Shown here: positions 29,068 through 29,907 of the stretch, one piece after another
Position numbering within the stretch: position 1 is the stretch's first letter
How the letters are laid out: each line of letters begins with the position of its first letter
NCBI GenBank assembly: GCA_963752155.1
Contig: CAVVXH010000006.1
Coordinates: forward strand, 128,001 to 192,000
Direction: 5' to 3'
Source of the DNA: an uncultured Parachlamydiaceae bacterium
GTDB lineage: Bacteria; Chlamydiota; Chlamydiia; Chlamydiales; Parachlamydiaceae
Length of the DNA stretch: 64,000 nucleotides
Notes under the pieces: model-generated
What the model saw: the letters and a program-made list of their open reading frames with translations, nothing else
Database searches by the model: none
Told to the model about the DNA's origin: nothing
Position numbers and translations under genes: made by a program

Positions 29068-29200
29068 AAAGATGCTGCGATATTAGGGTATAAAGTATAG
29101 GAAAAATTCAACACAAAGGCACGAAGGCACAAAGAGCACAAAGGGATTTTACATATAAAGTATAAAATTTACCTGTAAGATCCCTTTGGTGTGCTTTCGT
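29068..29200. repeat. Family B repeat, left of the GxxExxY gene
   Basis: AAAGATGCTGCGATATTAGGGTATAAAGTATAGGAAAAATT...GGCACGAAGGCACAAAGAGCACAAAG, inverted relative to 29785-29869. Confidence 0.9.
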
Positions 29201-29284
29201 ATTTTGTAGAGTTGTATTGTTTGAATTTTAAGTGAATTTTCTTATAGAATGTGTATCTAAAGGAACCTTAAGAGGAACTTGTCA

Positions 29285-29687
29285 ATGGACCAAAAAGACT
29301 TAAAGATTGAAAATGAGCTTTCACATAATAATTATCGGGGCATCAATAGAAGTGCATAAAACTTTAGGTGGACCTGGTCTTCTTGAAAGTGTGTATGAAG
29401 CTGCATTATGCCATGAACTTAAATTAAGAGGTTTATGCTTACAAAGGCAAAAGTCCACATCAGTAATATACAAGGGAGTAGCAATAAAAGACCCTCTTTA
29501 CATTGATATCTTAGTTGAGGATAAAGTGCTTATCGAAGTTAAGGCGGTTGAAAAGATCCATCCAATCTATGAAACTCAAGTTCTCACATATCTAAGATTG
29601 ACCGATATAAAACTAGGCCTTCTCATAAATTTTGGTGCTTCTTCTATAAAAGAAGGCGTTTCACGAATTATAAATCATAAAGTATAG
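29285..29687 (+). CDS. GxxExxY family protein (PD-(D/E)XK nuclease fold), with a +1 indel near 29325
   Basis: GPGLLESVYE, YIDILVEDKVLIEVK and LGLLINFG. The upstream ATG at 29285 (MDQKDLKIENELSH, GAGG RBS) joins IIIGASIEVH if one A is removed. Confidence 0.9.
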
Positions 29688-29907
29688 GAAAAAATTAAAC
29701 GTATGGCACGAAGGGCGCAAAGAGCACAAAGAGATCTTACTCGTAAAGTATCCTATTTTTCTTTAAATTGAAGATTCTTCGCGTAAGATCTCTTTGTGCT
29801 CTTTGCGCCTTCGTGCTCTTTGCGTTTAATTTTTCCTATACTTTAATACCCTAATATCGCAGCATCTTTCTCACGTCTCGCTTTGCGTTTAATTTTTTCC
29901 TATACTT
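29678..29907. repeat. Family B full hairpin plus an extra end module, right of the GxxExxY gene
   Basis: 29678-29743 pairs with 29781-29844. It is followed by ACCCTAATATCGCAGCATCTTTCTCAC and a second TCTCGCTTTGCGTTTAATTTTTTCCTATACTT. Confidence 0.92.

Follow-up and report, generated by a model that had tools for sequence, protein, structure and literature searches.

Genes of the GxxExxY family, which encode a small putative nuclease of the PD-(D/E)XK fold, go together with a pair of inverted arrays of 8-9-nt words (the arms); the two co-vary and are found in the same genomes, and derivatives of the unit that have lost the gene, or keep only a remnant of it, multiply. This association is described here from a stretch of 64,000 nucleotides (the window) of an uncultured Parachlamydiaceae bacterium, which comprises positions 128001-192000 of contig C6 in the source genome (G000; 3.13 Mb, 38% G+C, 22 contigs), and in which one such gene lies beside bamA. 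An earlier interpretation made from the letters alone (the sequence-only reading) had singled out this gene and its inverted ends as a candidate nuclease-plus-repeat mobility system. Of the accounts considered, the most likely is that the gene and its two word arrays are inherited as a single cassette, belong to a widespread type of element that is selfish or at least associated with itself, and are propagated by the mechanism proposed below; in our estimate this is about as likely as not.

Inverted word arrays and GxxExxY genes

The packaging of GxxExxY genes between arms has been found in many bacterial and archaeal phyla. In a cross-phyla sample of 80 loci, archaea included, from which two were dropped for short flanks, the score of the flanking inverted repeat exceeded the 95% point of the position-shifted control distribution for 69 of the 78 genes and for 13 of 285 controls (Mann-Whitney p 1.5e-34), which bears out the suggestion of the sequence-only reading that such genes might be flanked by periodic inverted repeats across genomes. 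Nearly everywhere, the arms of these units are arrays of C-R-C-R-R-A-G words, with a dominant period of 8 nt in 36 of 70 units and of 9 nt in 22. At 26 GxxExxY loci from 31 genomes related to the source genome, inverted arrays of words could be made out by eye on either side of the gene in 17 cases and on a single side in the other nine, several of the latter being cut by contig ends or by truncation of the gene. In many relatives, the distance from a GxxExxY gene to the end of its contig is often no more than a few hundred bases; this is as expected if the arms break short-read assemblies, and gene and array counts from drafts are therefore lower bounds.

Arms and protein also co-vary, as had been proposed. 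The 3' arm of a unit was the best partner of its own 5' arm in 46 of 94 units and among the top five in 60, and the similarity of swapped arms rises with that of the proteins (Mantel rho 0.36, p 0.001). At the level of sequence comparison, this shows that gene and arms descend together, although co-variation alone does not prove recognition. For example, the protein closest to that of the window (locus L017, 74% identical) is encoded in a unit that keeps the A/T-rich prefix of the arm and has CACAGAG instead of CACAAAG words in both arms; left and right words have changed together. Co-occurrence was scored in 31 related genomes by comparing a three-word array pattern with matches to TIGR04256, a control pattern read backwards giving 0 hits in most of them. 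Arrays and gene were both present in 19 genomes, both absent from 10 and discordant in two (Fisher p 2.6e-6, Spearman 0.74, both overstated because kin genomes are not independent). The discordant genomes are G008, which has gene fragments only, and G016 (79% complete), which has arrays only. The latter is the single genome of the 31 in which arrays occur with no GxxExxY match, a combination that the sequence-only reading had named as grounds for giving up the association.

The contrast between the arms of two GxxExxY subfamilies within the source genome is judged more telling than co-variation across genomes. In subfamily 1, all three copies (on contigs C6, C4 and C5) touch CACAAAG-type arms, which belong to a repeat family here called family B. 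The C6 copy, that of the window, has family B on both sides; in the 5'-truncated C5 copy it comes directly after the stop codon, and in the 3'-truncated C4 copy the word core stands directly before the ATG. With a density of one family-B locus per 24 kb, rough arithmetic puts chance adjacency at about 3% per gene. Just upstream of the C4 copy there is also a stretch of a second palindromic family, family C. Subfamily 2, with an intact copy at C10:276728-277069, has AACGAT-type 9-nt words that are unrelated to the CACAAAG arms. Arrays of this type flank 9 of 9 gene fragments of the subfamily, and those of at least four words number 91 in the genome, with 4 to about 30 words per arm. Around a gene remnant, the numbers of AACGAT words on the two sides roughly match. 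Arrays of the same type occur in the window at about 25359-25551 and 59186-59421, and also at C11:253576-253761. In addition, one internal-deletion junction of the subfamily-2 gene recurs at seven loci on six contigs, and at one locus (L021) an internally deleted second copy adjoins the intact one. By analogy, these recurring deletion derivatives follow the pattern of non-autonomous derivatives seen in miniature inverted-repeat transposable elements (MITEs).

In the case of family B, an iterated nhmmer search gave the genome-wide count for a module of which the sequence-only reading had listed gene-less copies in the window: 129 loci, which add up to 15,935 nt (0.51% of the genome) and of which 54 measure at least 150 nt. 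Three of the listed copies were recovered by the same search, and the fourth only as a short BLAST match (Table 1). No fewer than 115 of the 129 loci overlap long open reading frames (ORFs) by less than 10%, though such ORFs make up 84% of the genome. The statement that the copies always stand at the edge of an accessory gene did not hold, since genome-wide placement tracks the bases available in gaps (convergent, divergent and tandem gaps hold 23, 25 and 74 loci, compared with 23.6, 29.6 and 68.8 expected) and some loci adjoin housekeeping genes, for example tyrS and dnaJ. A 221-nt family-B query is strong only in the source genome (52 matches); in 6 of 30 relatives it finds just the word core of about 40 nt, with at most seven such short matches in any relative. 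A different transposase carrying these ends, which had been named as a finding that would speak against the nuclease, was not encountered: none of 20 ORFs between close family-B pairs in the source genome encodes a transposase, and its two loci of the Y1_Tnp family (PF01797) do not resemble the GxxExxY unit and are more than 2 kb away from any family-B locus. The outcomes named beforehand as refuting thus mostly failed to appear.

The unit beside bamA

In the window, the left end of the unit (29068-29171) is complementary to the right end (29764-29869) over about 100 nt by means of three contiguous inverted pairs, namely 29068-29094 with 29843-29869 (27 nt, 96% complementary), 29091-29118 with 29818-29845 (28 nt, 93%) and 29119-29171 with 29764-29816 (53 nt, 77%). 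The inner parts of the ends consist of CACGAAG/CACAAAG-type words with a 9-nt period. A degenerate 17-nt pattern, GCACRAAGNGCACAAAG, allowing at most two mismatches, has six matches in the window, where 0.03 would be expected, and six were reached in 0 of 100 shuffles; the inverted ends and periodic core described in the sequence-only reading are thus confirmed. Two further outer pairs (29034-29053 with 29818-29837, and 29092-29135 with 29865-29908) were absent from it. The claim that each side forms its own hairpin stands for both sides, the right one being near-perfect and the left one degenerate, but the sequences that had been called the ends of the unit are the outer arms of these two hairpins. 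The GxxExxY gene is not enclosed in a single hairpin loop but stands between a left and a right hairpin element. Its stop codon (TAG, 29685-29687) is inside the right repeat, as had been noticed; this repeat begins at 29672-29677, and its 5' arm supplies the last codons of the gene together with the stop. The whole unit looks nested mid-way in an older small palindrome of the same kind, represented by the outer pair 29034-29060 and 29875-29908. Chance or an assembly artefact as the source of the repeats has been ruled out by the flank controls, the fold z-scores and the pattern shuffles.

The ORF at 29307-29687 on the forward strand matches PF13366 (PDDEXK_3; E 6.5e-38, 130.1 bits, cut-off 22) and the GxxExxY profile TIGR04256 (E 1.9e-40, 137.9 bits, cut-off 35), and the nearest named relative of its product comes from a metagenome-assembled genome of the Parachlamydiales. 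The likely start of the gene is the ATG at 29285, which is in a different frame that closes at 29359. Comparison with 21 relatives places one frameshift at about 29325-29330, and the reading frame is therefore not intact. Across an alignment of 22 sequences, residues E20, Y23, D60, E70 and K72 do not vary, and Q84 and Y88 reach at least 90% conservation; the protein of the window has all of them. The structure predicted by AlphaFold has a pLDDT (predicted local distance difference test) score of 94.3, and its best Foldseek match is the Cas4 protein SSO0001 (4ic1; E 5e-4, template modelling score 0.55 on the query), the AddAB nuclease domain, lambda exonuclease and Hjc being also found. A sequence search of the PDB gave no chain at E values up to 0.01. 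The conserved E, D, ExK and QxxxY residues, together with the confidently predicted Cas4-like fold, make the protein look like an active nuclease. PF13366 is a very large family whose function is given as 'Unknown' in its listing in PMC3424549. GxxExxY relatives are rare on mobile vehicles, with 8 matches among 72,556 plasmid records, mostly very large replicons, and none among 50,697 phage records.

The gene is situated between bamA, which is on the minus strand and starts near 28953, and an ORF of 4004 amino acids (30003-42017). The 5' part of bamA (28300-28953) is read in three frames, with frameshifts near 28801 and within about 28250-28420. Including that of the nuclease gene, three frame breaks fall in about 1.1 kb, adjoining two intact 12-kb ORFs; a second close copy of bamA was not found in the source genome. 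Two congeners have an intact bamA of 827 amino acids and, beside it, a gap of 210-230 bp that lacks the cassette. The sequence-only reading had proposed looking in relatives for an empty site between bamA and its neighbour. In fact, homology to the congener G002 stops at 29027 and resumes at 55868, and what is missing there is an island of about 27 kb consisting of the cassette and two giant paralogous ORFs. The congeners therefore differ by the whole island and not by the cassette alone, which makes the cassette inseparable from the island in this comparison. The two giant ORFs, in tandem at 30003-42017 and 43465-55332 (3955 amino acids), end in the same residues, and in each case a family-B end fragment extends over the stop codon; residues 2908-3106 of the first match DUF3638. 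Another long palindrome (55420-55800), unrelated by eye to families B and C, separates the second giant ORF from the gene that follows.

Table 1. Features of the GxxExxY unit and family-B copies in the window (positions in the window; dG, free energy of the DNA fold)
Feature	Position	Strand	Basis
Left inverted end: outer 27-nt segment, A/T-rich segment, three to four 9-nt CACAAAG/CACGAAG words	29068..29171	+	
Left hairpin element, decayed 3' arm	29090..29262	+	dG -26.3 kcal/mol, z -5.6; nhmmer locus 29064-29204
GxxExxY / PDDEXK_3 nuclease gene	29285..29687	+	PF13366, TIGR04256; frameshift ~29325-29330; long ORF 29307-29687
Right hairpin element, near-complete family-B copy (stem-loop 29677-29845, 169 nt)	29672..29875	+	nhmmer; dG -61.5 kcal/mol, z -16
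Right inverted end, complementary to 29068-29171	29764..29869	+	inverted-repeat comparison
Outer partial arm, outside the main unit, pairs with 29875-29908	29034..29060	+	inverted-repeat comparison
Outer partial arm, partner of 29034-29060	29875..29908	+	inverted-repeat comparison
Gene-less family-B hairpin copy	3780..3941		iterated nhmmer; pattern search
Family-B fragment	4586..4631		iterated nhmmer; pattern search
Family-B end fragment over the stop of the 4004-aa ORF	42013..42055		iterated nhmmer
Weak family-B end fragment over the stop of the 3955-aa ORF	55331..55370		40-nt BLAST match only, 87.5%

Proposed mechanism and competing explanations

According to the reading of gene and arrays as a selfish or self-associated cassette, the small Cas4-like PD-(D/E)XK protein would recognise the words of its own arms in double-stranded DNA, probably with more than one subunit bound along an array, and would nick or cut at the arrays. 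Host repair and recombination at such breaks might then copy the cassette, or shortened versions of it reduced to the arms, into other intergenic sites. In the source genome, the arms-only family B would have multiplied to about 129 loci by this route, and the sole cognate full-length gene, beside bamA, appears to be decaying, or is at least frameshifted. The boxing of small genes extends to another family: genes for the intervening-sequence (IVS) protein, a four-helix bundle (PF05635), are enclosed by inverted arrays at 7 of 7 printed loci in relatives (L165-L172). Their arms have other words than those of GxxExxY, mostly with a 6-nt GGGCAC/GTGCCC period, and at several of these loci the upstream arm reads pyrimidine-rich, opposite to the GxxExxY arms; in the source genome PF05635 has one sub-threshold match only (22 bits). 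Each tiny gene family thus has its own kind of arm, which is easier to reconcile with a relation specific to the protein than with a shared vehicle, and the boxed PF05635 genes link the class to the intervening sequences of 23S rRNA. A bolder version would make GxxExxY proteins word-array-specific endonucleases that drive homing-like or break-induced copying of their cassettes and of the arms-only hairpins and, with the boxed IVS-protein genes, form one large 'gene-in-a-box' class of minimal selfish elements in bacteria and archaea, for which no earlier description was found and of which rRNA intervening sequences would be one insertion site; we put it forward tentatively and incline to doubt it.

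Several observations weigh against spread by the nuclease, a part of the sequence-only reading that has fared poorly. Binding, cutting or spreading of the repeats by the protein is inferred, and to our knowledge a PD-(D/E)XK hydrolase alone is unable to join DNA. The frameshift in the gene of the window may be real decay or a local sequence error, the latter because the adjoining bamA has two frameshifts of its own. Family-B copies share a median identity of 92% with their nearest neighbour and at most 96.6%, none reaching 97%; the copies are old, with no recent burst. A precise empty site or transposition junction for the cassette was not found in the congeners, and at the seven deletion derivatives of subfamily 2 neither boundaries nor a target-site duplication could be defined, the ends being blurred by nested palindromic modules. 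The boxing of unrelated four-helix-bundle genes indicates that it is not peculiar to the nuclease. In a related genome, G029, with 67 TIGR04256 matches, both expansions of the cassette are inside longer repeats resembling the insertion sequence (IS) IS5. These repeats end at IS-like termini and are followed by unique DNA. At least eight full cassettes follow sequence that encodes the C-terminus of an IS5-like transposase, and 20 of 20 sampled remnant cassettes adjoin the N-terminus of one (by-eye reading), so the copy number of the cassette in this genome is apparently explained by an IS and not by the nuclease. The sites occupied (L129-L138, L176-L195) are after the transposase stop, and between the end of the IS and the transposase start. 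The copies of G029 were also of no use for mapping the cassette's own ends, the repeat being longer than the cassette and having IS-like termini. Finally, the stronger Y1 locus of the source genome (C10:596730-597053, L174) has the 360-bp palindromic family C on both sides, and at eight or more loci with a shared junction, for instance C6:222953-223452, which is 31 kb beyond the window, end modules of family B enclose a family-C copy. Other machinery is thus active in the same repeats, where family B encloses Y1-linked family C.

These observations lend themselves to the view that the cassette and the hairpins are passive DNA, moved by an IS, by a Y1 transposase of the kind associated with repetitive extragenic palindromic (REP) sequences (RAYT) or by recombination or slippage at palindromes, with the nuclease serving another role, for example in repair or defence, and the arms being operator or regulatory sites or baggage. 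In its favour are the multiplication of the G029 cassette at two different positions within IS5-like elements, the nesting of Y1-flanking family C in family-B modules, the range of 4 to about 30 words per arm, as slippage would give, and the presence of 129 hairpins beside a sole cognate family-B gene that is frameshifted. However, the Y1 loci are unlike the GxxExxY unit and stand apart from family B, none of the 20 enclosed ORFs is a transposase, and passive movement leaves unexplained both the tracking of protein subfamilies by their arms, in one genome and across phyla, and the concordance of arrays and gene in 29 of 31 relatives; on balance we find it unlikely. The arms could also act as RNA, forming a long stem around the ORF for RNase III processing, as happens in 23S rRNA intervening sequences, or for mRNA stability or termination, the gene-less hairpins being then like terminators or stabilisers. 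The folding of the whole unit as RNA, which pairs the outer ends (z -10), and the boxed IVS-protein genes agree with this explanation. An RNA stem kept in the sense transcript would be expected to give more G·U than A·C mismatches; this excess is absent from the gene-flanking arms of 86 units (146 G·T and 173 A·C mismatches on the sense strand, p 0.15, in addition to 341 transversions) and from 54 family-B hairpins (90 G·U-compatible and 87 A·C), and RNA-stem action gains no support from it. Moreover, neither gene 3' ends nor convergent gaps are enriched in hairpins, on which ground a terminator-like role was rejected; the unit is intergenic and outside rRNA, and an Rfam search over 28000-31000 gave no family at threshold, only sub-threshold chance matches, and no rRNA. 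A look-up of public sequencing runs for 28950-30050 returned none. Action as RNA is accordingly improbable, and the lack of a wobble excess, with the even intergenic placement, would favour sites acting as duplex DNA or a neutral by-product of arm copying.

A benefit to the host is the least probable of the explanations considered, and we regard it as very doubtful. Here the hairpins would be chromosomal sites for nucleoid organisation, for replication or repair checkpoints or for self/non-self marking, and a domesticated GxxExxY reader would be kept by vertical descent. Vertical maintenance with benefit to the host has been argued for populations of RAYT genes and their REP-derived hairpins (REPINs). 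The age and divergence of the family-B population, its even distribution over intergenic space and the near absence of GxxExxY relatives from phages and plasmids are what such a system would show, but family B is strong in one genome only, with few and short core matches in relatives, 10 of the 31 related genomes have neither gene nor arrays and two have only one of them, and the local gene is frameshifted. In addition, multiple transfers and mixed clades are listed for PF13366 in the corresponding entry of Steczkiewicz et al. (2012, PMC3424549).

Meaning and comparison with known systems

Full-text literature searches, covering main texts, found no published account of a cassette made of a gene and word arrays. 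The results tie PF13366/GxxExxY proteins, with controls, to a recognisable DNA partner, the inverted 8-9-nt word arrays, which is a testable substrate, and explain a class of periodic intergenic hairpins occupying 0.5% of the source genome. If the nuclease is specific for its words, it could serve as a compact, programmable-looking reader of DNA. The results would, in addition, connect rRNA intervening sequences with a broader class of elements.

Among proteins, the nearest comparison is with the minimal nucleases of the Cas4/RecB family (SSO0001, 4ic1; Pcal_0546, 4r5q; the AddAB domain), which share the PD-(D/E)XK core and the E, D, ExK and QxxxY residues. GxxExxY proteins, with about 120 residues, have some 60% of the length of the matched Cas4 chains of about 200 residues; by eye, the alignment of 22 sequences has no cysteine cluster for an Fe-S centre, and the genes have no CRISPR context. 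With the MITEs derived from ISs the unit has in common its terminal inverted repeats and the multiplication of derivatives that have lost internal sequence but retain the two ends, as in subfamily 2 (seven loci, and L021). It differs from them in encoding neither a DDE nor another transposase, the nuclease gene being the only gene with these ends. A target-site duplication could not be defined, nested modules blurring the ends and the congeners offering no usable empty site. Another related case is that of the 23S rRNA intervening sequences that carry an S23p (PF05635) ORF, as described by Warrier et al. (2016, PMC4990558). Both have a tiny ORF inside terminal inverted repeats able to form a long stem, both have a sporadic, horizontally scattered distribution, and PF05635 genes in the relatives are themselves boxed by inverted word arrays; however, the present unit is outside rRNA, has an ORF of another family and arms made of word arrays, and lacks the wobble signature of an RNA stem.

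Finally, the parallel drawn by the sequence-only reading was with REP sequences and REPINs and their RAYT genes (Bertels and Rainey, 2011, PMC3116915; Di Nocera et al., 2013, PMC3733652). It has held in layout, that is, an enzyme with its own inverted repeats and many gene-less copies, the enzyme being of the PD-(D/E)XK kind and not a transposase, but not as membership of that system, since the unit has no Y1 gene. The enzyme is a hydrolase of about 125 residues (PF13366), whereas RAYT proteins are tyrosine transposases of the Y1/HUH type (PF01797). The arms are tandem 8-9-nt words, whereas REPs are single palindromes of 20-40 nt, described by Di Nocera et al. (2013, PMC3733652) as short palindromic units that carry a GTAG or CGTC tag; intermediates are not known. 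Family C, a different repeat family, flanks the stronger Y1 locus of the source genome, and family-B sequence is missing from both Y1 loci. On the other hand, in both systems a single enzyme gene stands between inverted copies of its own repeats, numerous gene-less hairpin copies are distributed over extragenic space in proportion to its size, and gene subfamilies of the same genome differ in the repeat family that accompanies them. These likenesses suggest a second partnership between an enzyme and palindromes, beside that of RAYT and REPIN, on a different enzyme fold.

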